Below, piece by piece: positions 5,485 through 51,414 of a stretch of 64,000 nt of DNA; the first letter of the stretch is position 1; every line of letters begins with the position of its first letter. The notes under the pieces are model-generated. The model ran no database searches and was not told the DNA's origin. It saw only the letters and a list, made by a program, of their open reading frames with translations. This stretch comes from an uncultured Nitrososphaerales archaeon (GTDB lineage: Archaea; Thermoproteota; Nitrososphaeria; Nitrososphaerales; Nitrososphaeraceae), in assembly GCA_963709405.1 (NCBI GenBank), contig CAVPXM010000055.1, forward strand, positions 160,001 to 224,000. The letters run 5' to 3'. Made by a program: the position numbers and the translations under genes.

Positions 5485-6861
5485 CGTGAAGACCAGATCC
5501 TCTCAAATTTTTCCAGCCCTTCAGAAAGCAAAGTCTCCGGCTGACAGGCGGATAGTCTTATGAAATTGTGGTAAAGACTTCCAAAACCGCTTCCAGGCGC
5601 AACTGCCACTCCTGACTGCAAGAGCTTTTCTACAAGGGATAAATCCTGATTTTCTGACCTTGCTGCAATCTTCGGAAAAACATAAAAAGAACCATCGGGT
5701 TTCATGCACGGTATAGATAATCGGCGAAAGCTATCCATAATCAAATCAATCCTTCGATCAATAAGCTGAGTATTGTCTTCGACTTTGCTTTTAAGAGCAG
5801 CTAAGGCGCAATATTGAATGGGTTCCGACACACTTGTTAATGCTAATGCTTGGACATTTGCGATCTTTCGTATGATATCTTTTGAAGCAACAACGTACCC
5901 GATCCTGAACCCAGTCATAGCAAAGCGTTTTGAAAAGCTAGAAATCATGATGTTTTTCTCGTATTGGTACTCCAGAATGCTTCTGAATTTTGTAAATATA
6001 CAACCCGAGTAAACCTCATCACTAAGTAGATAGATACCATTCTCCTTTGCAATGCGATGTATCTTTTCGATTACTTTCTCTTCCAAAATTTTTCCAGTAG
6101 GGTTGTTAGGATAATTTATCACTATCATTCTTGTATTAACATTAATCATTGATTCAAGCTCATTAACACTTGGAGTCCACGCGTCTTCAAGAGTTGTTCT
6201 TAACGCTCTTAACCTTGCACCGATAAAATTTGTACAATCCCTGTAAGCAGGCCAGGCGGGTTCAACCGATATCACTTCCTCGTCAGGTCGTATTAATGCT
6301 ACTATGGCTGCAAAGACCCCAAATCTTGCACCAGGTGTGACAACGACATTCTCATCGCTTACGCCATACCCTACGTCTTTGGCTATATTTTGTCGTAATT
6401 TAGGTATTCCAGCAGTCTCGGTATAATGATAATGTCCAGAATCATAAGCATCAACCAATGCGTTGCGTGTAGCTGATTGGAGCTTGAAAATCTGGTTCCC
6501 CAACTTCCATATGTATGATGCGTTTACCAGTCGCTTCCATTTGCCTGGCTTTATTAAATATGCTCAAATGTGTTTGTTTTCCGTCATTCTGCTGCGTTTC
6601 TTGGATCCTAACAGATCCTGCAAGTAATATATTGAGTAGTCGGCTAGCAAAAGTTGAATCTAATCCAATTTCTTTGCATAACGACATCACCGATCTCCTA
6701 ATATCGTCTTCAGCATTCTGATCGATTATGTCTATAAAGAGATCTGACTTAATCGCACCTATCTCTTCGGAAATCTCCATCCTCTTTTGAACCTTGAGAA
6801 ATATATCATTTGTTATGTCTCGCATTTGATTCCTCAATTTCTCCAGCTCCGTGTTGGTCAA
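5481..6861 (-). CDS. Chorismate mutase / class I-II aminotransferase fusion (one extra base near 6475 splits the ORF)
   Basis: N-terminal AroQ-like domain, then IIHMEVGEPDF; removing one base joins it to YTETAGIPKLR, NYPNNPTG, SDEVY, SFSKRFAMTGFRIG. Confidence 0.88.
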
Positions 6862-6868
6862 TGTTATG

Positions 6869-7969
6869 TCACCTCTTTAACACTGGAGGAACCTGTCCGC
6901 ATCTAATTGCGTGATCCGCTAAGACCATGGAAACCATTGACTCAACTACTGGCGCTGCTCGAGGCACTACACAAGGGTCATGTCGTCCTGGAACGCTCAA
7001 TTCTACCTCTTCGCCGGTGGACAGGTTGAGCGTTCGTTGGGGCTTTAAAATCGAGGCTGCTGGTTTAAATCCTATTCTAATAATAAGAGGCATACCATTT
7101 GACAAACCACCTAAAATGCCTCCAGAATTATTGGTCTTTGTTACTATTCTATTTCCGACCTTATAAAACGAATCATTATTTTCTGAACCATGAAGAGAAC
7201 AACCTTTAAACCCTGAACCAAATTCAACTGCCTTTACAGCTGGTATGCTAAATAGAGCTCTACTAAGATCGGATTCTAAAGAGCCAAAGATTGGCTCTCC
7301 CAAACCAACTGGCAGTCCAATAGTCATGGATTCGACAATTCCTCCAAGAGAATCTCCTTCTCGTCTAGCTTTTAAAATTGCCTCCCTCATCTCTATCGCT
7401 ATTTTGATATCCGGGCATCTAATATCATTTGCATATCTATTCTTCCGTGCGTCGTCGAGCTGTACGTCTTCCAAGGAGATGTTCCCTATTTGTTTTGTGT
7501 ACGCTAAGGTCTCAACTCCAAGGGTATGATGCAATAGCTTCTGGGATACAGCACCTGCCATTACAAAGGTGGCCGTCAATCTACCAGAAAACCTTCCGCT
7601 TCCTCGATAGTCTGCGAATCCTCCATACTTGATGAGAGATGTATAGTCAGAATGTCCTGGTCTTGGGATCATTCTCATAGCATCATAAGTTCTAGAGTCA
7701 GAATCTTTGTTCCAAATTATCATGCATATCGGCGCTCCTGTCGTTATATTATTAAACAGACCTGAAAGGATCGTGACTTTATCTGCCTCCATCCTTTGGG
7801 TAGACACCACAGATTGTCCTGGCTTCCTCTTATCCAGTTCTTGCTGAATGTCAGATTCGGTCAGCGGTAAACCCGCAGGGCAGCCATCAATCACCGCACC
7901 TATGCAAATACCATGGCTTTCTCCAAAACTCATGGTTACAAATCGTTCACCAATCAAATTCCCCGGCAT
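6869..7969 (-). CDS. aroC: Chorismate synthase
   Basis: FGESHG, PRPGHSD, NNSGGILGG, GRHDPCV. Confidence 0.97.
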   Translation of the reverse strand: MPGNLIGERFVTMSFGESHGICIGAVIDGCPAGLPLTESDIQQELDKRKPGQSVVSTQRMEADKVTILSGLFNNITTGAPICMIIWNKDSDSRTYDAMRMIPRPGHSDYTSLIKYGGFADYRGSGRFSGRLTATFVMAGAVSQKLLHHTLGVETLAYTKQIGNISLEDVQLDDARKNRYANDIRCPDIKIAIEMREAILKARREGDSLGGIVESMTIGLPVGLGEPIFGSLESDLSRALFSIPAVKAVEFGSGFKGCSLHGSENNDSFYKVGNRIVTKTNNSGGILGGLSNGMPLIIRIGFKPAASILKPQRTLNLSTGEEVELSVPGRHDPCVVPRAAPVVESMVSMVLADHAIRCGQVPPVLKR

Positions 7970-8120
7970 ATTCCTATCCTCCTCAACCTTCTGTTATGTT
8001 ATAGGATCTCCTTTGACTCAGCTCTGATATATATAGTCAATCTCGTATCGTGAGGCAATTAAGGTGGCCTCGAAAATATCCTTCTATCGGGTGTCTTTAC
8101 GAGATAAAGGTGGTCCTATT

Positions 8121-11117: not shown

Positions 11118-11796
11118 TCTTCGTAAACATTCCACAATATAACTTTCTCATCTGATATACTGACAACTGTCCTGGTGCAATTTCGGTTCCTAGTGAAGCA
11201 TAGGTAAATGGCGTGGTCTTGTATAATCCGCACAATACTCTCGATAAAATTCCCTTTTCTCCCATTGCGAAGGCAATTAGTTTTGAATCATTTGCATCTT
11301 TATACAGATCCAATATGGAAATCGAGTCCTCGATACTTTTCGCCATCGTTACAATCTTGATAAATTTACTAAAATGCTTCATATTTGATAGAAGCCCCCT
11401 CAGCTCTTGCAGGTTGGGCGTGTATTCAGTGTTATGCCACGAGACAAGTAACGAAGAATTATTTTTCTCAAAATAGTGTAAAAGATTGTGATTAGTTTTT
11501 AAGGTATTGTATTCTATATCTAACAGCATAGGCCGCGCATCGGCAAGCCTACTTAACCAGAACACTCTTTCCTCAAAATCTCCGCGAAACTTTCCTGACT
11601 CCTTCTCATCTCGTAACGTGTATATAGATCTGCTCTTAACTGTGTTGGCTCGTCGAAGGGCTTGATCCAAGTCAGAGCTGCTCAAAAAGTCAAAGCGGAT
11701 TTCTAAAAATTCAGCACCAGAGTCTAGCGCTTCTGACAGGTTCTTTTCAAGTTGCTCCAAGTTCTCGGCTGCTATTGAGACACATATCTTAGGCAA
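11095..11796 (-). CDS. aroD: Type I 3-dehydroquinate dehydratase
   Basis: EIRFD, YTLR, LDIEY, SWH, KIV, AMGEKGILSR, APGQ. Confidence 0.93.
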   Translation of the reverse strand: MPKICVSIAAENLEQLEKNLSEALDSGAEFLEIRFDFLSSSDLDQALRRANTVKSRSIYTLRDEKESGKFRGDFEERVFWLSRLADARPMLLDIEYNTLKTNHNLLHYFEKNNSSLLVSWHNTEYTPNLQELRGLLSNMKHFSKFIKIVTMAKSIEDSISILDLYKDANDSKLIAFAMGEKGILSRVLCGLYKTTPFTYASLGTEIAPGQLSVYQMRKLYCGMFTKNGIGEIH

Positions 11797-12142
11797 CAGT
11801 ATCTATTAACATGAAATTAGACTAATTAATTTATTTGCAAACTAGCATTTGATATAGATCTGTCAATCAATCGAATCTTATCATGCAACATGAAAATCAT
11901 TGCGGTTTTCAAATTCGCGCCTACAGAACCAATATTATATACGGACTAATTAGTCCAACGAAAAGGCATTGCTTGAGCATATAAGAATTCGGCTCCTTAA
12001 AATAGACTGTGTGACTATTAATTGCAGATTTGCCCAAGCTAGTATGAGGAAATGTCTATCCAGTTCGTTCATATCTAAAACAATCAAGCCAGGATATAAT
12101 CTGCAAACAAGAGATTGGGTATCATGGATTCATGGGAATTTA

Positions 12143-13018
12143 TCACCGATGAATATAGTGAGAAGGAATCTTTCTCCAGTTTGCAATTAGAGCCTTTGGT
12201 CTAATATGAAGTTGTTCTTCCCTCAATCTTTCTCTAGCTAATTTGACATAATCCTCGACGATATCCATTCCAATGTACCTCCGTCGGAAATGTGAAGCAA
12301 CCTTTGTAGTTTGGCCGCTCCCATTAAAGGGATCTAGGATGGTATCTCCTTTGTACGAATATAGCTTCATTAATCGATATGGGATCTCCTCAGGAAATGG
12401 ACATGGATGATTAATGTAACCTGGTGGAACTGGGGCTATATGCCATACTGAATTTGCGATTTCTTTAGTCCATTCTTCGTGAGTGGCAGGCAGTGCATCC
12501 CTTCTTTGGTTTCGACCGGAGTTAACATTTCCTTTTCTGAGGACCAGAATGAATTCGTGCATTATATTGGCCCGATAGTACTTTGGATACGGGTTTATTA
12601 CAAACGAGCCATATCTGTTAGTTCCACCGGTAACTTTGTGCCAAATGATTTCCTCATGGAGGTTCCATGTTCCATATGGTTCGACCAATTTAGAAAGGAG
12701 CATGTGAGGTAGAGGTAACAGAGTCCCATTAACTAATTCGTTACCAATGACTATACAACAATATCCACCTTCTTTAGTTACACGAAATATGCTTTCGTTA
12801 AATATTCGTACCATCTCATCTAGATATTCACTAGTCTCTTGTCTCAATCTGCCACGATAGTACCCTCCACTCTTCGAAGCATGCATGTCGTAGTCAATTG
12901 CATTTCTATAAGGGGGGGACGTAATGGTTAGCTGGATTGATTCAGGGGCAATCCTCTCCAACGTTGATCTGCAATGGCCCACAGTAATAGTGTTGAGAAG
13001 GCTTTCTTGAAGTAACAT
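12143..13018 (-). CDS. Orphan beta-class amino-DNA methyltransferase (N4-cytosine type)
   Basis: Catalytic motif IV TSPPY near the N-terminus; HPCPFP and motif I ILDPFNGSG near the C-terminus (beta order); no adjacent endonuclease gene. Confidence 0.9.
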   Translation of the reverse strand: MLLQESLLNTITVGHCRSTLERIAPESIQLTITSPPYRNAIDYDMHASKSGGYYRGRLRQETSEYLDEMVRIFNESIFRVTKEGGYCCIVIGNELVNGTLLPLPHMLLSKLVEPYGTWNLHEEIIWHKVTGGTNRYGSFVINPYPKYYRANIMHEFILVLRKGNVNSGRNQRRDALPATHEEWTKEIANSVWHIAPVPPGYINHPCPFPEEIPYRLMKLYSYKGDTILDPFNGSGQTTKVASHFRRRYIGMDIVEDYVKLARERLREEQLHIRPKALIANWRKIPSHYIHR

Positions 13019-13112: not shown

Positions 13113-14178
13113 TCATTTCTCTATCAAATACTCATCGATTTCTATGCCAAAATGTCTGCCTGATCCTTGCCTTGCGGAGCCAAGGATCTTGTCACCGATT
13201 TTTAATTCTGTAACTGCTACCAGGGATCCATCTGGTTTTACAAGTCTTATTGTTTCAGCATTCTGTAAGATTATCGTGCCAACTTTACCGCCAGTCTCAC
13301 CTTTTATAAGTCTAAGAGGACGAGTTTCAATTTTTGATCTCCCCACTGTAACTCGTCTGGAGGCGCCCTTATTATTAACAGCCAAAATTTCTGTACCCGC
13401 TTCAAGCTCGGATAGATACTTCGTCTTACCGTCGGGAGTAAGAGTATAACAATGCACCGCTCCGGCATTTACTCTGAAAGGCCAGCGGCGAGGTAAACGA
13501 CGAACCGATCGATTCGTTGTGTATCAAGAACATGAAGTTCGACTTACTACCAATCAACATTCCTTCGCCTAAGGTGAGAATTGATGTTGTATCTACACAA
13601 ACCCGCTCGCCAATGCCGACATCAATAACGTCTGTAACACTAATTTCGTGAATAGGTAGAGTCAGACTCTCCATATAACTCTTGGAATCACTTATTTCCT
13701 GCAAGTCATTAGTATCAAGTATAACACCATCGACCCCTAGCTCGAGGACTCCGAACATTGTTCGCACTTCCTCGGAATCTTTGGCTGTTGTGTAGATCTT
13801 GGTCTTTGATCGGCGTACTTTTGCTATTATGTTTTCGAGTGGAATAATTTTCCAATCTACAGATTTAACGATAACAAAGTCTGCGCCCATCTCAGATGCT
13901 ACTAACAAATCATTAATATCGTCATCACTTTTTACCTCTTTAAATATTCCATGAGGTTTTCCAGATTGTGTCGATTTGCCTAACTCCGCAGACGATTTGC
14001 AAATGACCATATCTGCGTCCTCTGATTCGTACATACTCTTAAACTTAGTTCCACGTAATGTTTTGGGGTTAGCATAAAGCACGTCAATATCAACTAATTT
14101 CGTAATAAAGCTCGCAAGTTCAGATTCGGAGACCTTTGGATTGATAACCAGAGTTTTGTTATTAATGTTGCTTGTCAA
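13113..14178 (-). CDS. 3-dehydroquinate synthase II, AroB' (one extra base near 13483)
   Basis: WKIIPLEN, ERVCVDT; repair restores PFRVNAGAVHCY, then YLSEL, QNAETIRL, GRHFG. Confidence 0.93.
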
Positions 14179-15092: not shown

Positions 15093-16302
15093 TTGATTGA
15101 TGCAAGAAATATAGGCCTTAGGAACATAGAGGTCGCTGATACTAAGATCTGTTCGATTGATGGTGATAATGGCAAGCTCATTTACCGAGGCTATGATATT
15201 CTGGATTTGGTTAATCATTCCACTTTTGAAGAAACTGCATATCTGTTGCTATTTGGTGATTTACCCAATTCTGAGGAGTTGGAAGACTTCAAACATCGTT
15301 TGACAGAAGCAAGATCCTTACCTGGTCCAGTGCTGAAAAATCTCTACAATCGACCAAAGCGTGCTGACCCTATGGACGTTATTCAATCCGCTATAACTGA
15401 GCTTCCAGATTACGATCTCAATATGGAGGAGGATTCAAAGACCGCAAATATAAGAAGGGCAATTATTCTGATAGGCAAGATTCCTACGATTATAGCCGCA
15501 TGGGATAGGATTAGACATTCGCAAGATGTGGTTGAGCCCTCAGAGGAAGGAAGTCATGCCGAAAATTTTCTCCGTTTACTTCGCGGGGACCAACCTACCA
15601 AAGAAGAAGCAAAGATGTTCGATATTTCGCTTATACTGCATGCTGAGCATAGCTTTTAATGCTTCGACATTTGCTGCAAGAGAAATTGCATCAACCAGAG
15701 CTCATATGTACGCCTCCATTGCCGGTGCGGTGGGTGCTCTGTCAGGAGAACTTCATGGAGGAGCCAATGTCCAGGTCATGAAAATGCTTCTGGAAATAGG
15801 AGAGGCCGGAAATGCAAGAAACTGGGTGCGAAAAAGATTGAATGAGGGCGGCAGGATTATGGGTATGGGTCATGCTGTGTATAGGACTACGGACCCAAGA
15901 GCCGAGATCCTCCGTACATTATCACGCATAATTTCTAAGGAACGAAATACGAAATGGTTTGAAATTACCGAAAATGTTGAAAAATCAACTCAAGACTTTA
16001 TGATTGAGAATAAAAGGCAAGCGATTTATGCAAACGTGGATCTTTATAGTGCATCACTTTATTACAGTTTGAACATTCCCTTAGATCTAAATACCCCAAT
16101 TTTTTCAATTGCTAGATCAGCAGGTTGGACAGCTCACGTTATAGAGGAAAAATTCGCCGAGGCAGCACCAAAACCAGCACTGTACAGGCCCAAAGCCTCC
16201 TATGTTGGCAAGTATTGCGGTCCAATGGGGTGCGAATATATACCGATAACTAACAGATTAAGTGAGCATCCTAATGAAAATGAGAATGATGGAAATGTGT
16301 AA
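15093..16302 (+). CDS. gltA: Citrate synthase (one extra T at 15654-15657)
   Basis: LIYRGY, LHAEHSF/NASTF, GELHGGAN, MGMGHAVY, NVDLYS. Confidence 0.95.
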
Positions 16303-16353: not shown

Positions 16354-16831
16354 TTGAGGGTAAGCGTTCTTTCCAAGACAGATACTTCCAGGTTAATTGA
16401 GTTAATGCATATAAACTGGCCTTCTGATAGCATTCCAAAAATAAAGACCCTAAAGGTATATGAAGCTGATCAAAACAAGTTTTTATTAAAATCTGACGAT
16501 TTTGTTGCCAAGGGTTGGTGATGATATTGTTCCATTTCTGGGGAAGGAGGAGCTTCTTCGACACTTTCCATTTGTAACTGTTGACATGAGAGCAGTCAGG
16601 TTTGTGTGCAATGGAGCTAATATTATGAGACCAGGAATAACAGCCTTCCAATCCTTTAAAAAAGGATCCGTTGTAGTGGTTAAGGATGAGAGTCATCTCA
16701 AGTCATTGTCTGTTGGAATAGCAGTAGAGAATAGCGATGATGCAGCTTCTAAAGACAGAGGTTGCGTAATCAATAATATTCATTACGTGAGCGACAGGCT
16801 CTGGGAAGCATATAAGGAAATAAAAAACTAG
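16354..16831 (+). CDS. PUA-domain RNA-binding protein with pre-PUA N-terminus (one extra base near 16510)
   Basis: Upstream frame from TTG 16354 (MRVSVLSKTDTSRLIE...) joins VTVDMRAVRFVCNGANIMRPGI...IHYVSDRLW. Confidence 0.85.
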
Positions 16832-19577: not shown

Positions 19578-20060
19578 ATTTTATGATAACATCTGCCCCA
19601 ACTTAAGTCCTCTGAATGTTTCGACCTAGCCGGAATTCCACTCAGATGCGTAAAAGTTTGTTTTGACTGGTTCTATCTTAATGAATGAATAGCATTTAAT
19701 TTGACTCCCACTATTCATCCTACTCATCATAACAAATTATTTCGACTTGTTGATATCAATCTTCTGAAATAGTAAATTATTTTTATAAAAGGTCACCCAA
19801 TTGTCACTACTAAGCAGGTATGGAGCCATCTATTGAATCTAACATAACAATTAGGTCGAAATGGCACTTATAATAATTGGAAGTATTTCTATATTACCAC
19901 AACTAGTATGGGAGACCGACAAATCTGGATGAAATATAAAGGTAATTAGTACTAAGGATTGTAGAAAGTTGCATTCCTCACTTAAAATAACTGATAGACA
20001 TAAAGGGACTTTCCCAATCAGAGATAACATAGCGAATAAGAATTATTTTCCCAACTTAAA

Positions 20061-20744
20061 CTAGGCAATAGATGGGACATCGTTATTCACAACGTGACCT
20101 AGATTTTTTCTTACGAATTTTAAAGCGGCGCCATCGATAGATCCGTATCTAGCTAATAATAGTTCTACATCTCGTCTTGTGTCCATATCGATCGTTGTCC
20201 TATCAGACAATACAACAATGACCGTGGCCTTAACAGCCAATGCCTCTTCAATGTGTCTAGTATAACTATCATCATCATAATGAGTTCTTATCAGGTTGAT
20301 TGGCTTTCTGAGTAGAATGTTTGATCCATCGTGTCGAAGCGAGGGAGAGATTACCAGGCATTTCTCATAATTTTTAGTCGATCTGCATATCATATCAACT
20401 TGTGCTGGTAGAAGGAGAGGCAAATCATGTGGTATTACAATGGTAGCATCCGCACCATTTTTGTTACTGAAATCATCTCCTGCACTTACTGCCTGATCTA
20501 CTCCATTGTCGATATCCTGCCTTAGGAATGTTACACCCATCCGATCACTTACTGAACGTGCACGATCGTCCCCAGAAACGATAACTATAGTATCTAATGT
20601 GCTAGATTTCATAAGAATAGATATGGTATCAACAAGAAGCAATTCTGCAAGTCTAATTCTAACTTGTTTAGATAACAATAATCTTAATCTAGATTTGCTA
20701 TTCTCAAATCTCTTGACTGGGACCACAGCGAATATCTTATTCAA
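20061..20744 (-). CDS. cofC: 2-phospho-L-lactate/PEP guanylyltransferase (F420 biosynthesis)
   Basis: VPVKRFENSKSRL, DLPLL, DMDT; overlaps the cofD stop. Confidence 0.9.
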   Translation of the reverse strand: MNKIFAVVPVKRFENSKSRLRLLLSKQVRIRLAELLLVDTISILMKSSTLDTIVIVSGDDRARSVSDRMGVTFLRQDIDNGVDQAVSAGDDFSNKNGADATIVIPHDLPLLLPAQVDMICRSTKNYEKCLVISPSLRHDGSNILLRKPINLIRTHYDDDSYTRHIEEALAVKATVIVVLSDRTTIDMDTRRDVELLLARYGSIDGAALKFVRKNLGHVVNNDVPSIA

Positions 20745-21664
20745 TGCTTCGCACAGTGCTTTAGAATATAATTGGCCAGCATATTTTCTTGATATCTGTT
20801 TTTCATAATAATATTTGTCCGATAAACACTAAGATCTAAATTTGATATCTCGGGAGATATTGCACTGTCTAATTCAGAAATAACGAATTTACTCAAGAAT
20901 TTCCTATAATACTTTGCTACTCCTACCGGCGAGACATGCATACCAGCAGATTTCATATATTTAGCAGCTGGCCCAGAGATTACACTGTTACCAATTATGG
21001 GAGACACAGCAACAACTCTTTCCTTTAAGGATATAAGTTCGGCTCTAAATTCTTTTAATGACAGCATTGGCCCAATGCTTGTAATTGGATTCGCAGGAGC
21101 TATGATAATTGTTCTAGACCGCCTCACGGCTTCCACTGCTAGAGGATTTACTATAGCTGTAGTACTTCCTTTATAGTAAACGGATCGAATTTTGGGCTTT
21201 GCTTTTTCTCTGACCCAAAATTCTTGAATATGTAAGTCTCCTATATCAGTTCTAAATCTGGTTTCGATATGATCATTCGAAACAGGAAGAATTCTAGGCA
21301 ACACTTTAAGTTTTCGCCTCAAATAATCCGTGACTTGTGAAAGGTCCTTACCCTCCCCCAGCATTTTAGTTCTTAATGCATGAGTTGCTAAATCCTTATC
21401 ACCTAACTTGAACCAAGTATCTTCACCAAGCATTCTCATTTGATTAAGAAAGTAATATGAGTCGTGTTGTATTCCCCATCCATTACTTAGATCTAGAATA
21501 TTACTGAGGCCATAGAGTGTGGTGTCTATGTCTGGACAAACGTACATCCCATTCAGCCAGATATTGTCAGCCACGTTCGAGATTATGACGAGATCTTTAA
21601 CAGCTTTAGCCAAGCCACGAATCAGCTTTATGGAGCCTGTTCCCCCTCCTATGACAGCGATCAA
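20741..21664 (-). CDS. cofD: 2-phospho-L-lactate transferase (F420 biosynthesis)
   Basis: GGGTGSIKL, CPDIDT, WFKLGDKD, HIQEFWV, PANPITSIGP, SGPAAKYM. Confidence 0.94.
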   Translation of the reverse strand: MIAVIGGGTGSIKLIRGLAKAVKDLVIISNVADNIWLNGMYVCPDIDTTLYGLSNILDLSNGWGIQHDSYYFLNQMRMLGEDTWFKLGDKDLATHALRTKMLGEGKDLSQVTDYLRRKLKVLPRILPVSNDHIETRFRTDIGDLHIQEFWVREKAKPKIRSVYYKGSTTAIVNPLAVEAVRRSRTIIIAPANPITSIGPMLSLKEFRAELISLKERVVAVSPIIGNSVISGPAAKYMKSAGMHVSPVGVAKYYRKFLSKFVISELDSAISPEISNLDLSVYRTNIIMKNRYQENMLANYILKHCAKH

Positions 21665-21928
21665 ATTTAGATAGCTAAGGCGAATGTATAATGTATAACT
21701 TTCGAAGTGCTGTGGTAGGAATCTCAGAATAAAATAGGCAATTCCTATAAGATCTCTAGTGGATCATCACGCCCTCCTTTCATATACTCAAACGTAGTAA
21801 ACTTGCGGCGCAGATGAATTAAATTATGCAAATCTTTATTGGCGACCCAGACAATCGAAAGAATTATTAAGGCTAGATGAAATAAGGTCGCAACAAAGAT
21901 TATAAACAGGGCTCATGAGAGTTTTCAT

Positions 21929-22965
21929 GTGAAGGCTGCGACATTCTCTTTATATGCGTTTATCATAGCTATTTTGTTGGGGGGTGGTGTGTCCTGTGTG
22001 AATGGCGTCCAGATGACAACTTTATTGATCCCCTCTCAGAACTCGGCACAAGGAGATCTAGTTGGAGTCAGATTCATTGAACTTAAATATGATCCAAGTA
22101 GTACAATCAGCTAAACAACTCGCTGGTAAAACAGAAAACGTTAGGTTTACGCTTAATTCTTCCGATCCTGCTATGGCTAAAATTGTTTCTATTATCAACA
22201 GCGATATTGCTTCGCAGAAAAAAAGTCCTGTCAGGTTCACTAACGCAACTTTAGTGTACACAGGCCAGATAAGAGGAGATCCTAACAGCGCTACACTATC
22301 TTATAAAGTGGATATCAAACCCACCATCAGCAACTTTGTGCTTGACAAGAATAGTCAGGGAGCTGTTGTTGACCTAGACTGGCGAGGATTCGTTATTGAC
22401 GAACCCTTACTTGTTAATGTGCCAAAGTATGGAAATATGAGTATTAATTATCCAATAGGCCTTTTGCAAGCTACGCATTCGGATTTGGCAAAAAAATTCC
22501 TTGCATCAGCCTCCTCATCCGTCATGAAAGATCCATTGCTGGATTTTCATGATGTCGCAAAATCTATGGATACCTGGCATTTCTTGTTTGACCCGACAGG
22601 AAGTCAGGCAGGAGCTGCAGGATTTAAGGAAATCGGTGGTGCTCGTGCAATTTCTATTTATTCACTGGGTGAGAGGCAGCTTTAGAGAAGGCACTATGAC
22701 CGAAACAGTATCTGACAGCACAGCTAATATTGACGGTTCTCCAGTAGGAGTTCACTCCAGTACTCCTCCTCCAAGTGCCCAAATCCAGATTAGCGGATTT
22801 TCTAACATTCGAAAGTCAGGAAACAGCGAACTGGCCTTTGTTTCAGATAAGGCTCCTGAAGGAACAGTTACAGCTACCGGAGGATTTCCCATTCAGGTAC
22901 TTCTCGTCTTGGGAGGAATGATGGGGGCTGTAGCCGTGTTTGTTCTTCTCAAGGCAAGGAAATGA
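21929..22965 (+). CDS. Exported protein with C-terminal membrane anchor (extra bases near 22108 and 22675)
   Basis: Three consecutive overlapping ORFs join into signal peptide + beta-rich body + GGFPIQVLLVLGGMMGAVAVFVLL-KARK anchor. Confidence 0.75.
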
Positions 22966-23021
22966 ATGATGTAGGTATGATTAAAATTGAAGACTTCAAG
23001 TGTTAAAGGAGAGAGATTGCA

Positions 23022-23552
23022 TTATCCATCCCCTTGAAGCCTCAGATAATATCCAATATCTAGCAATGTGTAAACTGTGATTGACCCCTCGTTGAATATT
23101 TGTGCTGCAGGAACCCTAGCCCTGCCCACGGCGACAGTTTCCCTCTTATCGTTTAGGATCACTAGAAACTGACTTGCTAGAATGTCTGGGCTCGCATCGG
23201 TAATCGATTGTCCGAACAGATCTCTTCCGTATAGGACCAATCTCTCTCCGATCTCATTAACAACCACGAAAGGAAGCTTTCTACCGACTCTATAAAAGAT
23301 GTCTGCTCCTTGCAAGGATGGAATAAATTGCTTCCCTAGATGACCAATCATTAGACCTACATAAGTGGGAGAAACCGAAAGCGCTACTGCCCCAGCGCTG
23401 TCTGACGCTAAATAGACCTTCCTTTCTTTAGTCTTCAAGTGTTCCTTTATCAATATAGATTTGTCTTTGAAGAAGTCAAAGCATCCCAATTTATCATAGG
23501 TCCTCTTAAGAATTGTTAATTCTCTTCGAGTGGGCTTTCTGTACACATTCAT
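23022..23552 (-). CDS. NIP7-like PUA-domain ribosome biogenesis protein
   Basis: GERLVLYGRDL and LLDIGYYLR; coupled to the rRNA m5C methyltransferase gene. Confidence 0.75.
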   Translation of the reverse strand: MNVYRKPTRRELTILKRTYDKLGCFDFFKDKSILIKEHLKTKERKVYLASDSAGAVALSVSPTYVGLMIGHLGKQFIPSLQGADIFYRVGRKLPFVVVNEIGERLVLYGRDLFGQSITDASPDILASQFLVILNDKRETVAVGRARVPAAQIFNEGSITVYTLLDIGYYLRLQGDG

Positions 23553-24604: not shown

Positions 24605-24681
24605 TCATTCAAACTAATTAATAATTCTCTACAAATTATTCAGGTTGGATACTACTGCAAGGTTTAAACTTATGGGATAAG

Positions 24682-33275: not shown

Positions 33276-34180
33276 GATGCAGCTTTAGGCCCTTGTACCT
33301 ATTCCTAATGGTTACTTCCGTAACACCTGCTGCCTTCTGCAACATCCTTCTGCGTCTTGTTTTCACCGTTCATTACACAAGCCACATATAACGCAGCCGC
33401 AGCGAGTCCCATAGGATCCTTTCCGGCAGAGATCTTTCCTTCTTCCGCCTTTTTTAGAATTTCCAGAGCCTTTCTCTTGGTCTTTTCAGACAAACCAGCC
33501 TTGCTTGCGATTCTTGCTACACACTTTACGGGATCCACAACAGGCATCTTAAGATCTAGTTCTCGTATAAGTAGTCTATAGCACCTTGCGACATCCTTCT
33601 TTTTAATGTTGCTTGCGTTAGCGATATCTTTTAGGGTTCTTGGAGTCTCAGTGTCTCTACACGCTCCATATAGCGCAACCGCCACCAGTGCAGAAATTGA
33701 TCTCCCTCTCACAAGCCCTCTCTCCAGTGCTTTTCTATAGACATATGCTGCCTTCTCGATTACTGCATCTCCCACAGCTAATTTGTCCTTCAATCTATCC
33801 AATTCACTAAAAGCTTGTCTAAAATTCCTGTCAACAGGCTCATGAACCTGACTCCGGCTATCCCATGTTCTCAGTCTTTCAATGGTACTTTTCATTGATG
33901 CCGACAAAGGTTTTCCTGAGGCATCTTTATCTATAGGACCAATTATAGTAGCCAGGCCCATGTCATGCATAGCCAACGAGGTCGGTATTCCTGCTCTGCT
34001 CCTGTCTTCATGCTCTTCCTTGGAAAATGCCCTCCACTCAGGCCCTGTTTCCTCAATTCTTTCAGTAACCACGAAGCCACAGTTGCCACAAAACATTTCC
34101 CCACTTGAATTATCGGTGACCATGGGACCTTTTCCACAACGTGGACATCTATCACTAAATAACGAAATATCCTTTACCAG
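33265..34180 (-). CDS. tfb: Transcription initiation factor IIB (probable CTG start; one extra base near 33333)
   Basis: Zn ribbon CPRCG...CGNCG (first CxxC lies upstream of the ORF-track ATG), GPEWRAF, two cyclin folds; repair gives VAEAAGVTEVTIRNRYK. Confidence 0.95.
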
Positions 34181-34216
34181 GTCTTTTCACCATAAAAATG
34201 CCAAAATTTGCCATCT

Positions 34217-34236
34217 TATATAAATGTTTTATTCTT
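34217..34236 (-). promoter_or_regulatory. Putative BRE/TATA promoter of tfb
   Basis: Minus strand A-rich tract followed by TTTATATA (34224-34217), 37-44 nt upstream of the CTG. Confidence 0.6.
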
Positions 34237-34561
34237 TTATTTAAACTTTGTCCTTAGTCACCGATCACATGTCTAATATTTGTAGGTTTTTTCCATTGCC
34301 TTACATATTTACACGAAACAGCCGTACTTATTTGAATATATTTTAATTCGCTTGAATCTTCAGAATGCTAAACGTGTGCTATTTGATTAACCAAGATCCG
34401 CATAGATATGGCGTTAATTCACTTGGAACACAAATTGCAGTAGAATTAAAGGTAAGGAAAATGAATTAACGATTACTGCAAGGTATAAGCCTATTCAGTA
34501 AGTCACGTACCTAAAATATGCGTCCATAATCTTAATTAAAGGATAGACCATCCACTCATCT

Positions 34562-34924
34562 ATGAAAGAGATAAGGCAGATACCACGATGGGCTGTTGAG
34601 AATGACCCTTCATGGGAACAGCAATTTGATACAGTACAAAATCTGTTGAAATGGAGAAAGAGGGGAAGTAATATCTTTGCTATCGGTACTCCATCGAGTA
34701 TGACCTGCGATTTATTCGACAATCCTCCTGAAGGCTCTTTTTCGGATCTTCCCTACATTGGAACTCATTACGTTCTAAATGCTAAGGCCTGCCCAGACGA
34801 TCCGGCTAATATCACGAGATACCTTTCGAGTCGATACCTAAACCCAACCTACGACTCACACAATTTCCGAGGTAGGAAACTACGTATGCTTGGGCTTGAA
34901 ACCCCCGACCTAGATGTGCCGTAG
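34562..34924 (+). CDS. Hypothetical protein
   Basis: 120-aa ATG-started ORF with TTAATTAAA about 25-30 nt upstream; no family recognised. Confidence 0.6.
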   Translation: MKEIRQIPRWAVENDPSWEQQFDTVQNLLKWRKRGSNIFAIGTPSSMTCDLFDNPPEGSFSDLPYIGTHYVLNAKACPDDPANITRYLSSRYLNPTYDSHNFRGRKLRMLGLETPDLDVP

Positions 34925-34981
34925 AATCTCCAGAATTTAATGACTAAAAAGAAAAACAACACACATGAATAAACTTTACCA

Positions 34982-37438
34982 ATGCTTATTAAATTTCTGA
35001 GATCGGGATTACTAGTCTGCATAGTCCTAGTTTTTTCTTTAATTCTCAGTCATAGCTCAACGGGTTTATTCGTGGCATATGGCGTCGCATCTACTAAGAA
35101 AGGCGCCTTTATAGATAGTGCAAGGTTTATTCAATATCTTGATGAAAATACTGCACTGCAAGAAATGAAAAGTGGAAGACTAGATACTTACTACTTTCGA
35201 GTACCTCTTGAGGTTGTGTCTGACCTGAAGCGAGATCCGGCACTGATGGAGTACCGACAGAATGGCTGGATCGTTCGGACTTTTGTTAAATCCTGCTCCA
35301 CCAAAAAATAATGATACGTTAAATCCCTTCTATTTTAGACCGGTAAGATATGCAGTAAATTATCTTATTGATCGAGAATTTGTGGTCGATGAAATTCTAA
35401 AGGGCTACGGAACGCCCATGGTTGATCCCTTTGGAATTTATTCTCCGGAATATACGAATATAATCAGTACTGTAGAATCGCTAGGTCTCAAATATAATCC
35501 AGTGTTGGCTGATAAGATTATTACAAGTACACTTTCCTCTGCAGGAGCCTTCAAGCAGGCCGGAAAATGGATATACAAAGGTAATCCGATAGTCATAAAA
35601 GTCCTCATTAGAGGTGATGACGCTGAAAGAAGGTCGATGGGTGAACTCATCTCCTCTGAATTTCAAAAGATAGGGTTTACAGTTCTGAAGGATTACGGTG
35701 ACTTGAACAAGGCCAATAGCCTTGTCTATGGATCAGATCCCCAAGAATTTCAGTGGAATCTCTACACAGAGGCTTACGCCGGCACATCAGCCTTTGTTAA
35801 ATACAATCCGACCGTAACGTCTCAAATGTACGCATCTTACGCGGGGAACATGCCAGGTGGTCAGAATCCGACTTTTTGGCATTATCAAAATTCAACCATT
35901 GACAAGCTGGCTCAACATATCGCCTTCTTTAATTTTACGTCAGCCAACGAAAGGAACAACTTGGTCCGAAATGCAACGCTAGAAGGTATGAAAGAATCTG
36001 TTCGGATATTTGTTGCACAGCTAATCGAACCTTATGTTGCCAGGTCATCACTTTTAGGCCTAATAAATGATTTTGGTGCTGGAATAACTAGCAAGTATTC
36101 CTTAGTAAACGTTAGAACTCCAAAGGATACGAATTCACTTGATATTGGTGTTAAGCAAATTTACCAGGGAGCATGGAATAATATTGGAGGGTGCAAAGAT
36201 GCTTATTGCTCTGAAATTTTTACGCAACTTACAGATAGTGCGACCTTCAGAAACCCCTACACTGGTGACGTGATTCCAATGAGAGAGGTTTGGACAAACG
36301 TAACAACATTGGGACCCCACAATAGATTACATGTCCCAGCTGATGTTCGCATATGGAATCCGATCGCGCAAAAATGGACTGGCTTAGGTAAGAATGACTC
36401 GGCAATGAGCAAAGTCACATTTAGGATGTTACTCTCCAAATGGCACAATGGAATCATGATGGACAAAGCTGATATCTTGTACCCTCTCTACTTTACCTTC
36501 GAATGGGGAACCAATACTGGAAATGGTGACAGGACTTATGACCCTGAATACAGTACTGCTGCCCAGGTTGCAATTCCTCTTATAAAGGGCATAAAGTTTG
36601 ACAATAATAACACGTTCGAATCTTATATGGACCAGTGGCACTACGATAAAAAAGAGATAGCAGATTCAGGCAGCAATCTGGCCTTCTGAGCCATGGGAAA
36701 TCACTGCTGCTACGGAACGACTTGTCACGGCTGGAAAATTCGCATTTTCTAAAGGAGAATCGGCAGCTGAAGAACATTGATTGGCTGTCATTGATCATAT
36801 CTTCCCACGCAAATGCAATCAAGTCTGAGTTACAGAAGATGAAAACAGAGATGTACGTTCCAAGCCCTTTAAGGGGCATCGTAACTGTGGCTGAGGCTCA
36901 AAGAAGGTATGATGCGAGCATAAAATGGATTGAAACACATCGAAATGCCGTGATTGGCAATGGACCATTTTATCTTGACTCTTATAATCCCGAGGGTGGC
37001 ATTATAACGATTAAAGCTTTTAGAGATTCCTCCTACCCTTTTGAAGTAGGCCATTGGTCGATCTATGAACATCCAAAACTTGCTACTTTAGGAAAGATAT
37101 ATGTTCCCCAGTTCGCAGTGATAGGAAAGCCGTTGAAACTTTTATTTAATGTCTCTGAAGGAGGAAAGCCTACCAACGATGCGATAGTAAATTATTTCAT
37201 TTCAAATTGGGAGGGCAAAGTGATCCTAAGCGGAATAGCAGATGCGCAGTCATCAATTGGATCTCAAGATAAGAATATGAGTCATCTAGCAGGGTCTTAT
37301 GAGATAAATCTAGACAGAAATGCAACGGCTAAATTTCAATTTGGACCGAATATACTCAAAATATTCGCAACCGAAAAAGATGCGTTTAGGCCTGACATAT
37401 ACACTAAAACCATATTGGCAGTAAAAGATACAGCTTGA
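34982..37438 (+). CDS. Peptide/nickel ABC transporter substrate-binding protein, family 5 (extra bases near 35255 and 36670)
   Basis: Signal peptide, LLLNP...NPF..RPVRYAVNYLIDRE, KWHNG, IGNGPFYLDSY; three ORFs join after two one-base deletions. Confidence 0.88.
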
Positions 37439-37546
37439 TTAACCGTATTGCATTTAGCTTGGGATTCTTGATAGGTCAACCTTAATAGATAAGCAATATT
37501 AGAGTTATCTAGCAAATCTAAGGGGTACAGAGGGGGAAGTTGAATT

Positions 37547-38590
37547 ATGGGATTTCGACATTTTCTGATTAAAAGATCGATAAACATGATTCTTGTTGTA
37601 TTTTTTACACTCGTTATCACGATCGCAATCCTTGGCTCAACTATTGACAAGATTCTAATTGACTCTGTCAGATACGACGCAGTTAATGCAATAAGCCAAT
37701 CCAAATTTCATTTTCAATCTCTCAAAGAAAGACAATCGTATGTCACCACACAAATTGCATTAAATATAAAGTCTCTTGGGCTGGATGAACCCTGGTACTC
37801 ACCGAAGCGATTTTTTAACACATTATTAAGGATTGTCACCCTTGATTTGGGCAGATCCAATTTTTTTACTACTGACTCGGGTTCTTCTAGCGTGAGGGAC
37901 ATTATATTGGAAAGATTACCAAAAACAATTCTACTCTTTAGTACTTCAACCTTAATTGTTAGCGTTTTAGGAATTTATCTCGGTGCATTCATAGCAGATA
38001 GATCAGGATCGCTTATTGACAAGAGTAACTCATTATTGGCGATTCTTAGCAATAGCTTCCCTTCTTGGTGGATAGGAATGCTCATGATATTTATGTTCGC
38101 TTTTGTCTATCAAATATTTCCTGCTCGTTCTACTCCTATGAGTTCGCCATCTGATCCGTTTTACATCTTCGATCTGTTATATCACATGCTGCTGCCGCTG
38201 ATCACATTGGTGTTGGTGAGTTTTACTGCCTGGGCATATATTGTGCGCTACTACTTAATCAGAATTAGACATGAGGATTTCATCTTCTCCAAAAAAGCAA
38301 TAGGGATATCTAAAAGGCGGATTCTGTACTCTCATATGCTAAAAAATGCTGCGCCCCCCATAATAACGTCTGTGGCGCTAAGCTTGGCGGCTTCGTTTGG
38401 TGGAGCAATCATAATCGAGTCGGTCTTTGACTGGCCTGGTATGGGCAAGTTATACTATGATGCTATTGCCGTAAACGATGTGCCGATCATACTTGGTAAC
38501 ACATACATTTTTTCAATAATCTTTGTTGTAACAATTTTTATTACGGATATCGCATACGGATTCTTTGATCCAAGGGTGAAAGTCGGATAG
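37547..38590 (+). CDS. Peptide ABC transporter permease (OppB/DppB-like)
   Basis: LDLGRS, ERLPKT, PSWWIG, IESVFDWPGMG, DPRV. Confidence 0.93.
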   Translation: MGFRHFLIKRSINMILVVFFTLVITIAILGSTIDKILIDSVRYDAVNAISQSKFHFQSLKERQSYVTTQIALNIKSLGLDEPWYSPKRFFNTLLRIVTLDLGRSNFFTTDSGSSSVRDIILERLPKTILLFSTSTLIVSVLGIYLGAFIADRSGSLIDKSNSLLAILSNSFPSWWIGMLMIFMFAFVYQIFPARSTPMSSPSDPFYIFDLLYHMLLPLITLVLVSFTAWAYIVRYYLIRIRHEDFIFSKKAIGISKRRILYSHMLKNAAPPIITSVALSLAASFGGAIIIESVFDWPGMGKLYYDAIAVNDVPIILGNTYIFSIIFVVTIFITDIAYGFFDPRVKVG

Positions 38591-38639
38591 CATATCTCCC
38601 GGATGGACTTGCAGCATATTGACCATTCGATCAGACAGT

Positions 38640-40087
38640 ATGTCTTACCTTAAATCAAAACTAGCCAAAGCTTTGTTTTCCTCAAGACTTCACTTTCTAC
38701 GCGAAATGTTAAGTTCCAAGGCGAGCCATCCTAGGGATCTCTATATTATTGGTACTCCTCAGCTATGACCCTATATGCAGTTATCGCGATCCCACTAGAA
38801 TCATTTAGGCAATGGAATAACCCAAATTATTGGATCAACTATCCAAAGTCAGCTGCTCCAGCCTGGACTAACCTAGGACTCTTTGGTCCTAAAGAATCAG
38901 AGCAGATAATTCTAGGTACTGATGCAGCGGAAGTTACCTCTAGGTTTGAACACGGAATCCATATCGTTACACATTCTTTTGCGGTGAATTTCAAGTACGA
39001 TTCTTTTCCTACTGACTTCATGATACCTTACTCAGTCAAATACGGGTTAGTACCGCCAGCTATCGCGGTAAATGTGTTGCGCCCCGATGGCCAAACTTTT
39101 AGGATCTACGACACAGCGTTACCCCCAGGAGTAACGCAGGAATCTCCTGATACTAAATACCATACTGGTATGCAGACTGAATATTCTAACCGAATTTTTT
39201 CAACCGATCAGTCCATAAGTAAAAATATGCACAACTACCTTGATCTATTTAAATATCCGCAAGATGAATCGAATCCCCAAGTAATGATCTTTTCTGATCT
39301 CAACTCGAAACAAGTGCTTAAAGGTGTCTATAAATTTGAAGAGATTTTTTATTTTTTTAATAGTGCAGACAATGTAGCGGAATCCGGATTGGTTCTTGGA
39401 GGGAATGTTTACGGATTAATGGGTACAGATGAATTGAGAAGGGATCTCAGTATTGGAATATTTTGGGGGACACCTGTTGCGCTGTTTATTGGCCTTACTG
39501 TTTCCTTGTCATCGGTATTTATCGGACTTATATATGGAGTTATTGCTGGCTATAAAGGTAGGAGAACTGACGAAGCTCTTATGCGTGTTAATGATTTAAT
39601 TGTGTTTTTACCCGCCCTTCCGATTCTTATCCTTCTGACAGCGACGTTAGGGAGAAGCATATTCATAATTACTGTATTGTTAGTAATATTTGGTTGGGCT
39701 GGAGCCACCAGAGTTTCAAGAAGTTTGGCGCTTCAGATAAAAAATCTTCAATACGTAGAAGCAGCTAAATTAATGGGTGCATCTGATATGCGGATCATAT
39801 TCAAACACATCATACCTCAATTGCTGCCATTAACGTTTGCCAGCATTGCAATTGCTGTACCGGGTGCTATATTAGCCGAGGCTGCACTGAGCTTCTTGGG
39901 CTTGGGAGATCCAACCATTCCGACATGGGGTCAAATCTTGCACGAAGCCAACTCAGCTGATGCTGCGGCAAGAGGCCTTTGGTGGTGGATAATTCCACCT
40001 GGTTTAATGATTGCTTTAACGGGATTATCTTTTGCCCTGATTGGCAAAGCAATTGAGACTCTGACAGATCCTCTTCGCAAAGCATAG
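38640..40087 (+). CDS. Peptide ABC transporter permease (OppC/DppC-like; extra bases near 38723 and 38760)
   Basis: GTDELRRD, YVEAAKLMGA (EAA loop), EAALSFLGLG, TWGQIL; the repaired N-terminus SSKAAILGISILLVLLAMTLYAV supplies the first TM helix. Confidence 0.9.
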
Positions 40088-44442: not shown

Positions 44443-45820
44443 ATGGTTACTCAAGAAAACGATCAAAGATTCATCCAGATATACGAAGGGAGAACGAAGA
44501 TATTAGTTCCTGCAAAATCTATCGTTAGTGTCGTTCCCTCAAAGACCCCCGCTTTTTTTAATAGATTGGCAAAGCTTAATCGCGACATTTCAATTCTAGC
44601 CTACAGAGTTTATGCTTTAGGACTTCAAGATTCCATGCGCCGTCGACATCGACAGGATAATTCTGTTTTCGGGACCGGTTGTGATACCGAAACGATAACG
44701 TTTGCTGATGCATTTAGTGGTACTGGTGCACGTGCACTACGAGTAGCAGTGGAAGCTCCGGAGATTCAAGAAATATATGGTAATGATATTAATGGGCTAG
44801 CAATAGAGAACGCGAGATTATCCGCAGAGCTTAATTCAGTCGGTTACAAATGCTTCTTCCGTTCTGATGATGTTCATAAATTTTTAACAGAACATAAAAC
44901 GAATGATGGTAAAAGGTTTGTAATTGCAGACCTAGATCCCTTTGGTAGCCCTTCTCCTTATATTGATTCGTTATTGCGATCGGTGAGAAATGGCGGCCTG
45001 ATCTCTGTAACGGCAACAGATACTGCTGTGCTCTGCGGAGTATATCCAAAGATATGCTTTCGAAAGTACTATGGAAGACCTATAAATAATAGCTTTTCAA
45101 ACGAAACTGCAATTCGCTTACTTTTATCACTTATTTCGTTAGTCGCTGCAAGATTTGAACTCATTATCGAGCCAGTTTTCGTTCATGCAAATTTTCACTA
45201 TCTTCGAGTCTACCTCACAATTAAAACGAGTAGTAGCAAGGCAAATATGATGCATGAGAAGCTTGGATTTATTCAATATTGTTTCAAGTGCGGCAATAGA
45301 AAATATTCACCCTTGAATCCATTGACTTCACAGTTCGGCGTATCACGTGAACTGTGTAATCAGTGCGGAGATAGCCTTTATACAGTAGGCGGACCGATGT
45401 GGTCAGGTCAGCTCTTCGATAAACAATTCGTGAGAAAAATGAATGATCTAAATTCATCCACTTCAAGAAATGATCGTTCTAATGTCGTTTCTTGTGACAG
45501 GCCTGATGTCCAACGAAAGGACGGCGAACCTCGATTACGAAAGCCAAATAATCTCGGGTTATTCAAGGGATCGCACAAGAAAGGCGGCGTCGATCCTATA
45601 AGCAAGATTTTAGAAGTCGCGATTACAGAGTTGGACTCTATCCCATATTATTTTCGATCCGATGAGATATCTTCGATGTTGAGAAAAAATCCGTTGCCAC
45701 TTGGCACGATAATAGAAAGACTTGTCTCAAATGGATTCAATGCATCTAGGACTAGCCTTAACCCAGGCAGCGTTCAAAACTGATGCTCGTTTGTCAGAAA
45801 TAATAGGAATACTGAAGTAG
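44443..45820 (+). CDS. trm1: tRNA (guanine26-N2)-dimethyltransferase (one extra base near 45766)
   Basis: FFN...NRD, SGTGARALR, DLDPFGSP, TATD, Zn finger, GPMWSG; repair gives FKTDA at the C-terminus. Confidence 0.93.
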
Positions 45821-49357: not shown

Positions 49358-49526
49358 ATTTACGCAACAAAAATCTGATATTTTGGTAATTTATTGCCTT
49401 TCCGCCAATTTCTGGAATCAATTCCTTTTTGGAGCTAAGCAATGTATATCCTATAGACTAACAATCGATCTATGAATACAACTAATCTCTAAATACTTAA
49501 AGCAAAGGACATACTAAAGATAACAA

Positions 49527-49766
49527 ATGTTATGCAGATCGTGTGGAAATGAGATGAATCCATTCGAATTTTGTTCATCGTGTAATGAGGCGGTACAATG
49601 GAAATGCAGTAATTGTGACAGGGAAAACGACAAATCGATTCATACCCATTACGAGAATGTTACAACAGAGTCTTTTAGGCTATCTATTGTGATTCAGACC
49701 GCAGTTACAGCGAGCTTGCCTATCCGGACTAGCGTGGTTAGCAAATATCTGTTAATTCACTGTTAA
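49527..49766 (+). CDS. Small zinc-finger protein
   Basis: CRSC, CSSC, CSNC and HTH ligands; AT-rich box upstream. Confidence 0.75.
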   Translation: MLCRSCGNEMNPFEFCSSCNEAVQWKCSNCDRENDKSIHTHYENVTTESFRLSIVIQTAVTASLPIRTSVVSKYLLIHC

Positions 49767-49952
49767 TCTCACTATTTTCTATAAGATTCAGGATTCAGTA
49801 TTATTCCTTAATCGCCATCCATGATTAGCTCCGACTAATCAGTGTCGAATTCTATTATGACCTTGGATATTTGTGACTGACGATTAAAGATGGGTTCAGA
49901 TTTCGCCCCGATAACGGTACCCTTATGTAACGTAAATTGAGTGATAAACTTC

Positions 49953-51414
49953 ATGCTGCTTGAGAGTCTTGAAGAGTTTGTAGAAGCCCTTGAAAGAGCA
50001 GATGAGCTTAAGCGTATACGAACAAGGGTTAGTACTAATTTGGAGATAGACTGAGGTAATGCGCAGGTTGATGTACGATCGCGTCCATCATCAGCCGGCA
50101 GTGCTATTTGAGAATATTGAGGGACATTCCATTCCAATATTAGGAAATGCTTTCGGATCAATCAGAAGGCTTCAAATTGCATTAGATCTTAGCGATTTCA
50201 GTGAGATAGGCAATCGAATTGTAGATCTAACTAAGATGAAGATGCCGGCAGGAGTACTAAATAAAATTAAGATGTTGCCTAAGCTATCAGAATTGGCAGA
50301 TTACGGACCAAGAGTTGTAGAGACGGGTCCTGTTACTGAGGTCATAAAGGATGAAAATCGATCATCTCTAAACTCTTTGCCCATCCTAAAGTCATTTGCG
50401 GGAGACGCTGGGAAATTCATAACGTTTGGATTGACTGTATCTAAACATCCCGAGACTCAAGTTAGAAACATTGGAGTTTATAGGATTCAGATCCTAAACC
50501 ATAAAAAAGGTTTGATGCATTGGCAGATCCATAAGCGTGGTGCACAACACTTTGAGATATCCAAGGAACAGAAAAAGAAAATAGAAGTTGCAATTGTCAT
50601 CGGAGCGGATCCAGCCACAATTTTCTCTGCTATTGCACCAGTTCCAGAGGGGATGGACAAATTCCTTTTTGCAGGGATTACAAGAAAAAAGGGATTAAGA
50701 ATGGTGAAATGCAGAAGCGTTGACCTAGAAGTACCTGCCAATGCAGAGATCGTGCTTGAGGGTTATGTCAACCCCGATGAGACAGAAATGGAAGGTCCTT
50801 TTGCCGATCATACTGGTTATTATACGCCTCCTGAGCCATTTCCAGTTTTTACTCTTACGGGCATTATGCAAAAGAAAAACCCTATCTACTTGACTACAGT
50901 GGTTGGTAAGCCTATTTTAGAAGATGCATACATAGGAAAAGTAATTGAGCGTTCCTTTCTACCACTTATTAAAATGTTTCAGCCTGAGGTTATTGATTTT
51001 TCTATGCCGCCAGCGGGATGGTTCCAAGGACTTGCTATTATATCAATCAAGAAGCGTTATCCAGGCCAAGCAAAAAAAGTGATGATGGGTTTGTGGGGAC
51101 TGGGACAGCTCGCCCTCACGAAAGTATTTATCGTCGTCGACTATGATATAAATGTCCACAGTTTGGACGATGTTATATGGGCAGTTACCACTCGAGCAGA
51201 TCCACACCGGGATACTATGATAATTGACTTTACACCGACTGATACTCTGGACCCGGCGTCACCACTTGTAAATCTTGGGTCAAAAATGGGGATCGATGCA
51301 ACAACGAAATGGAAGGAGGAGGGATTTTCTAGAGATATCCAAGAATTGGCAATAGTCGACCAAAATACTAAGGAATATGTTGACCGCAGATGGACGGAAT
51401 ATGGATTAGACTAG
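49953..51414 (+). CDS. ubiD: UbiD-family decarboxylase, menaquinone-biosynthesis type (one extra base at 50050)
   Basis: Upstream frame MLLESLEEFVEALERADEL...LEI(A)EV joins PAVLFEN, RNIGVYR, EGPFADHTGYY, LDPAS, KMGIDAT. Confidence 0.93.

Follow-up and report, generated by a model that had tools for sequence, protein, structure and literature searches.

Twelve conserved genes in a 64,000-nucleotide stretch of the uncultured Nitrososphaeraceae archaeon G000 (positions 160001-224000 of contig C55; hereafter the window, within which unprefixed positions are counted) are split by frameshifts that recur at three palindromic motifs, GCWGC, AGCT and GTAC, and independent public sequencing runs lack the extra bases at every such position that they cover. 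The errors are specific to these motifs, well above chance, along the whole contig, across the genome and in two further assemblies. We think it quite likely that the split genes are long-read consensus errors at three motifs that the archaeon modifies as N4-methylcytosine (m4C), with N6-methyladenine (m6A) at GATC in addition; as a footprint of the methylome, this explanation is well supported but indirect. The source genome comprises 4.83 Mb in 100 contigs and is 91% complete, and Pfam identifies the genes of the window as archaeal housekeeping genes.

Translated open reading frames (ORFs) of the syntenic loci in five genomes of the same genus (G001-G005), whose orthologues served as intact references, were compared with the window by tblastn, and nucleotide alignments were then made for positions 6475, 13481, 15655, 16512, 45766 and 50050. 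Every one of the 15 sites that a first-pass annotation had listed as splitting 12 conserved genes is a true break against these orthologues. By their Pfam names, the affected genes encode a chorismate mutase/aminotransferase, 3-dehydroquinate (DHQ) synthase II, citrate synthase, a PUA-domain protein, an unnamed conserved ORF, 3-hydroxyacyl-CoA dehydrogenase, S-adenosylhomocysteine (AdoHcy) hydrolase, TFIIB, an ABC substrate-binding protein, an ABC permease, Trm1 and UbiD. Single relative proteins change frame at approximately 6472, and at 13450-93, 15607-56, 16509-11, 22110, 22673-78, 27845, 28968-77, 33334, 35254-60, 36670-74, 36746-74 and 50048-50, and the window carries one base more than every relative at 6475, 13481, 15655, 45766 and 50050. 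The list was incomplete: a sixteenth break, AGCT[G] (extra bases are bracketed), lies at 36769.

In one search, part of the stretch turned up in 20 public runs of 11 studies, and we aligned the Logan contigs of four of them (X1, X2, X5 and X8, from four studies) to positions 20001-40000. These contigs cannot be copies of the assembly, since they differ from the window by scattered single-nucleotide polymorphisms and by two indels, of 5 and 63 bases. The first-pass annotation had proposed accurate reads as a check, and the outcome is uniform: all 11 extra bases in the interval (22108, 22675, 27845, 28971, 28974, 33333, 35254, 36669, 36769, 38723 and 38760) are missing from the covering runs, in four of four runs at each position except 35254 and 38723, where X8 gives no cover and the count is three of three. 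Besides the differences listed here, the runs depart from the window in this interval by three more indels and 79 more substitutions. Among those listed, the bases removed are all G or C and stand in or beside GCWGC, AGCT or GTAC. Substitutions common to three or four runs fall in motifs as well; among those listed, GCWGC is mis-written three times and GATC once. The window reads GCGAC where three runs read GCAGC (28243-28244), GCTCC and GCAAC where three runs read GCTGC and GCAGC (33666 and 33678), and AATC where four runs read GATC (30536). Because the independent runs lack the extra bases, the genes at the 10 initially noted sites that they cover are intact and the assembly is wrong, as had been claimed for all 15; at the other five, where comparison is with relatives, the genes are very likely intact.

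The errors in the covered interval take a small set of forms. The conserved ORF without a Pfam family holds an extra C in T[C]AGCT at 22108 and an extra G in A[G]GCAGCT at 22675. GC[G]AGC splits the 3-hydroxyacyl-CoA dehydrogenase gene at 27845, and the same GCGAGC break is found in the congener G004 at the orthologous spot (L010, 14140); a second GC[G]AGC, at 38723, breaks the ABC permease gene at its start, and T[C]AGCT breaks this gene again at 38760. The AdoHcy hydrolase gene contains a mirror-image double insertion, [G]GTAC[C], at 28971-28974. An extra C follows the motif in GCTGC[C] at 33333, in the minus-strand TFIIB gene, and its absence is shown by 16.8 of 26.6 depth in X2. The ABC substrate-binding protein gene is interrupted by GTAC[C] at 35254, by A[G]GCAGC at 36669 and by AGCT[G] at 36769, the last coinciding with the frame switch at 36746-36774.

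Alignment to relatives locates the remaining breaks. At 6471-6476 the chorismate mutase/aminotransferase gene, on the minus strand, has one base too many at AGCT(G): the frame switches against three relatives, whose one-base gap falls beside AGCTG. The DHQ synthase II gene has an extra base within GGCCAGCGG at 13480-13486, seen both as a frame switch and in the alignment to relatives; the first-pass annotation had allowed an alternative repair here, the choice is indeed ambiguous in the alignment, and assignment of 13481 to GCWGC is correspondingly uncertain. In citrate synthase, AGCTTTT at 15651-15657 contains a surplus C or T relative to ATAG-TTTT in relatives, and this form is repeated at C55 56882 and 250326. 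Near the end of Trm1, AGGCAGC at 45765-45768 faces a one-base gap in four relatives; dropping a G yields the motif form, and dropping a C yields the relatives' own protein and no motif. The exact repair is thus ambiguous at 13481, 15651 and 45766. Near the start of UbiD, AG[A]CT at 50048-50052 coincides with a frame switch and with a gap at the A in three relatives.

The PUA-domain gene appears to be broken differently. At 16509-16514 it seems to have lost two bases within GC^CA, opposite GCAGCA in the G004 orthologue; the window is two bases shorter than the relatives in the nucleotide alignment, and adding two unknown bases at 16510 gives a summed alignment score of 1839, against 1810 for deleting one base. 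Here a GCWGC site has probably lost two bases. The first-pass statement that no site needs an added base probably fails here, and 16510, set apart by that annotation as the only site outside the motifs, may belong to GCWGC after all. A context resembling A-G-G-T-T is common to window 16512 (AAGGGTT), C55:144914 (AAGGTTA) and G000:C21:108367-108400 (TAGGTTA); it could be a further error-prone context, or a coincidence.

The runs also record variation of other kinds. The X1 and X5 contigs skip a 63-base stretch between two ORFs (37443-37505) that is present in X2, and this looks like a strain-level indel polymorphism. Five intergenic bases at 21747 are missing in X1 and X5 only, which is strain variation and not assembly error. 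One X2 contig of higher depth (16.3) carries 14 clustered substitutions at 24785-24904 and likely represents a divergent strain or a paralogous region.

We then considered whether the motif link extends along the contig, using the ORFs of G004 and G002 for a census of C55:1-275000 with strict, protein-guided placement. It yielded 49 de-duplicated events, of which 41 are healed by removing one base and eight are of another class. In or at a motif are 28 of 38 one-base events, where 2000 random draws averaged 2.7 and never exceeded 10; a second count on the contig gave 25 of 34, with 5.4 expected. Several of the census misses are motif sites placed 1-3 bases off, such as 22108, which was put at 22111-2. 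Among the eight 'two-base' (d=2) events, C55 86764 and 88888 agree with G002 and resemble natural variation, and 196696 combines a pair of one-base events.

Across all of G000 we used a reference-free scan for junctions between ORFs of the same strand that are flanked by coding potential. Because many true gene boundaries form its background, the scan serves solely as a contrast between junctions healed by a one-base deletion ('+1'; 574) and the opposite class ('-1'; 410); it recovered 24 of 44 homology-based events on C55. When the error k-mers defined on C55 were applied, as a hold-out test, to the other 99 contigs, they occurred in 208 of 508 '+1' junctions and 65 of 378 '-1' junctions (p=1e-14). 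An unbiased k-mer ranking over the same 99 contigs placed GCAGC at the top (101 vs 19), and GGCAGC (71 vs 6) and GCGAGC (40 vs 3) show the same bias. By contrast, frameshift events stay at the random level in G000 for GATC, CGCG, CATG, TCGA, GGCC, TTAA, CTAG and GCSGC. The enrichment over random positions that the first-pass annotation had suggested looking for is present on the contig, and the other contigs show enrichment over control junctions. Overall k-mer frequencies, compared between G000 and its relatives, do not clearly reveal the error forms in excess, since the affected sites are too few. G+C content is 0.40-0.42 in contigs C55, C63, C78, C80 and C15 and approximately 0.35-0.38 in most other contigs of the bin, and motif-linked errors are present on both classes.

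The pattern recurs in two further assemblies. G004, on a 441-kb contig, has about 55 breaks of the same forms in 261 kb; 32 of 40 fall at a motif, against 7.4 expected, and GTAC, with 10 of 40, is clearly enriched. G031, reached via a Nitrososphaerales record and bearing no kinship label, has a 1.16-Mb contig with 59 events, and GCWGC (10), AGCT (16) and GTAC (8 of 44) each attain counts reached in none of 400 random draws. CTAG is enriched solely in G031 (7 of 44, 0/400 draws), against 0 of 33 in G000 and 1 of 38 in G004; further, GATTC/GAATC is weakly enriched in G031:C1:760001-1160000 (L156-L175; 5 of 44, 15/400 draws) and unseen in G000 and G004. The three-motif pattern does not recur in G002, which has just eight events, mostly of the other class. 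A 400-kb contig of G017 gave no events in approximately 11,500-11,900 aligned residues per query set, and is either clean or offers too little comparable sequence.

Contigs that reach 455 kb, together with the types of error, lead us to infer that the platform was most likely nanopore. Under the explanation that we favor, both strands of GCWGC, AGCT and GTAC would very probably carry N4-methylcytosine, and GATC N6-methyladenine. The modified bases would distort the read signal, reproducibly and according to context, and the base-caller would then insert a G or C within the motif or next to it, or sometimes swap a base, giving such recurrent forms as GCTGCC from GCTGC, GCGAGC from GCAGC, GCAGACT from GCAGCT, AGCTGA from AGCTA and GTACC from GTAC. 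Because the motifs are palindromic, both read directions would be affected, and a polished consensus would keep the error at a fraction of sites. The first-pass annotation had likewise proposed a methylome footprint: its motif-specific artefact stands, and modification itself is supported indirectly.

G000 encodes plausible writers of such marks. Its PF01555 genes lie on C61, C21 (two paralogues, one broken by an assembly error), C55 and C29 (ParB-fused), and at C21:164097-165171 (interrupted in a C6 run). Four of them, at C61:83603-84682, C21:264172-265017, C21:107735-108611 (the paralogue with the assembly error) and window 12143-13018, have an SPPY motif (TSPPY in the translated genes), which we take to be the mark of N4-cytosine enzymes. 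A homologue search found one Dam-family gene. Neither the C5 methyltransferase family (PF00145) nor DndC has a match in this 91% complete genome, and PF02384 is represented by a 27-residue fragment only. The window itself holds, on its minus strand, an intact beta-class DNA methyltransferase (12143-13018; profile match to PF01555, TSPPY), a candidate writer of one of the motifs. Across 16 of the 18 family genomes searched its identity is 72-94%, and a 17th match is only 35% identical. The enzyme on C61 (359 aa, SPPY; G000:C61:83603-84682) has orthologues in 11 of 18 family genomes and in G031-G034, and one is present in all three assemblies with GCWGC errors. The beta-class N6_N4_Mtase domain and the SPPY catalytic motif are those expected of the HG10/HG19-type enzymes discussed below. 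Conservation is taxon-wide for the window gene (17 of 18) and the C21 family (16 of 18), and narrower for the C61 gene (only 11 of 18).

Matches of the individual enzymes assign no motifs to them: those in NCBIfam are generic and sub-threshold, and those in the PDB are generic beta-class without a clue to specificity. We also looked among long-read relatives for one with many errors and no C61 enzyme. The enzyme is missing from G017, whose contig has no events, G031-G034 all carry an orthologue, and G035, where none was found, is just 1.1 Mb. We propose, tentatively and with somewhat less than even confidence, that GCWGC is a third, widely shared cytosine mark of soil Nitrososphaeraceae, probably m4C, that the C61 enzyme would be its writer by elimination, and that the two family-wide enzymes would serve AGCT and GTAC.

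Other features of these genes deserve mention. The C61 orthologue is split in two pieces in G033:C25:43226-44255 and G004:C43:16826-17840, probably by the same kind of assembly error. The SPPY paralogue at G000:C21:264172-265017 is at most 66% identical to its matches in 30 relatives, and only 61-62% within the genus; it may have diverged recently and recognize another sequence. At G000:C21:164359-164462, a run of six C splits a DPPF-type PF01555 methyltransferase through an ordinary homopolymer error. The protein at G000:C29:30247-31644 (465 aa) joins a weak ParB-like N-terminus to PF01555, with DPHY replacing SPPY, and a shorter relative is encoded at C55:375936-376331; it may be a mobile-element methylase.

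Several observations weigh against modification as the cause. Most motif sites are free of error, with some 4-24% affected: among the listed differences in positions 20001-40000, approximately 8 of 34 GCWGC sites, the most error-prone of the three, 3 of 73 AGCT sites and 2 of 48 GTAC sites are hit. About five to six of 38 contig events have no motif (for example C55 80253, 144914, 248874 and 260470), and one break is a plain C6 homopolymer error. GTAC is weak in G000, with two sites in the window and 1 of 33 events on the contig, which is the random level; across the non-C55 contigs it occurs in 42 of 508 versus 16 of 378 junctions (p=0.02). If G000, G004 and G031 come from the same platform or base-caller, their common pattern cannot tell modification apart from a fault of sequence context alone. 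The nanopore passages of the literature describe mostly substitutions at 6mA and 5mC motifs, not one-base insertions at m4C motifs; those of PMC11610603 report strand-specific mismatches, mainly at 6mA, whereas here we see mostly one-base G/C insertions at cytosine-type palindromes, and in the finished consensus only.

The low hit rate would suit systematic context errors of the platform or base-caller that arise regardless of modification, with the palindromes incidental. The error forms depend strongly on their flanks (for example, AGCT followed by A), and the same forms appear in G004 and G031, possibly from the same platform. We nevertheless judge this explanation unlikely. Two of the three motifs are m4C motifs catalogued for the order (passages of PMC10609329), G000 shows no enrichment at GCSGC or at seven further palindromes, and the one shared G-to-A error among those listed falls in GATC, matching the Dam homologue. 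CTAG is an additional motif in G031 and absent as a signal in G000 and G004; because the motif sets differ between assemblies in this way, organism-specific methylomes fit better than a generic base-caller fault.

Alternatively, the motifs could be modified other than at N4, by 5-methylcytosine (m5C), a phosphorothioate or another mark, to which we give a slim chance. M.ApeKI-like archaeal GCWGC enzymes are listed as m5C, with one predicted in Nitrosoarchaeum limnia (PMC11033074, Table 1), and a partial hit rate would suit partial modification. Against this stand the missing PF00145 and DndC matches, the four SPPY-type PF01555 genes and, from passages of PMC6329791, the existence of m4C at GCWGC elsewhere (M.AbaBS3I). 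We infer that the mark at the three motifs is m4C. That the frameshifts are real, as pseudogenes, programmed frameshifts or strain variants, is scarcely credible: nothing beyond the assembly itself speaks for it, it is refuted for the 11 covered bases by their absence from independent runs, and 12 housekeeping genes broken within 44 kb, with intact orthologues, would be implausible.

The errors have practical consequences. On C55, false frameshifts fall approximately every 6-7 kb (41 one-base events over 275 kb), and the genome would contain several hundred (574 versus 410 junctions), a rough figure given a recall of 24 of 44 on C55. Users of G000, G004 and G031 who study gene content, pseudogene counts or the metabolism of ammonia-oxidising archaea would see false gene loss. 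If our proposal for GCWGC is true, consensus indel patterns alone would let methylomes be read from uncorrected long-read metagenome bins, CTAG in G031 being an example. For uncultured soil Nitrososphaeraceae, the pattern speaks indirectly for methylation at AGCT and GTAC, with GCWGC as a candidate third mark.

The error phenomenon and two of the marks have precedents. That modification causes motif-linked nanopore errors is established (PMC11610603, Genome Res 2024), and the errors described in its passages resemble ours in falling at short methylation motifs, outlasting polishing and allowing the motifs to be recovered from the errors. According to passages of a REBASE survey (PMC10609329), Nitrososphaerales have persistent orphan m4C methyltransferases for GTAC (HG10, 8 of 8) and AGCT (HG19, 8 of 8), and GATC m6A (HG3), likewise persistent in that order, is listed for 27 of 29 Nitrososphaerota; passages of PMC6329791 and PMC8919816 report AGCT m4C measured in marine and lake relatives. 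The statement in the first-pass annotation on AGCT methylation in Nitrososphaerota is thus correct, and its suggestion that GTAC and GCWGC are new for the lineage does not hold for GTAC, catalogued as HG10, and may hold for GCWGC. The text of PMC10609329 and one of its supplement files gave no GCWGC, and the literature searched ties this motif to the phylum solely through the predicted m5C enzyme of Nitrosoarchaeum limnia.

For GCWGC, the comparison is with enzymes of other lineages and by recognition sequence only. M.AbaBS3I, an experimentally known m4C methyltransferase from Chloroflexi (PMC6329791), and the M.ApeKI-type archaeal enzymes, listed as m5C (PMC11033074, Table 1; PMC8557920), recognize the same sequence; G000 has no C5 enzyme match. 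The HG catalogue, in the passages of PMC10609329, does not include GCWGC. With the HG10, HG19 and HG3 enzymes of Nitrososphaerales described there, by contrast, the archaeon shares its taxon, two of the three motifs, conserved PF01555 genes with SPPY and a Dam homologue.

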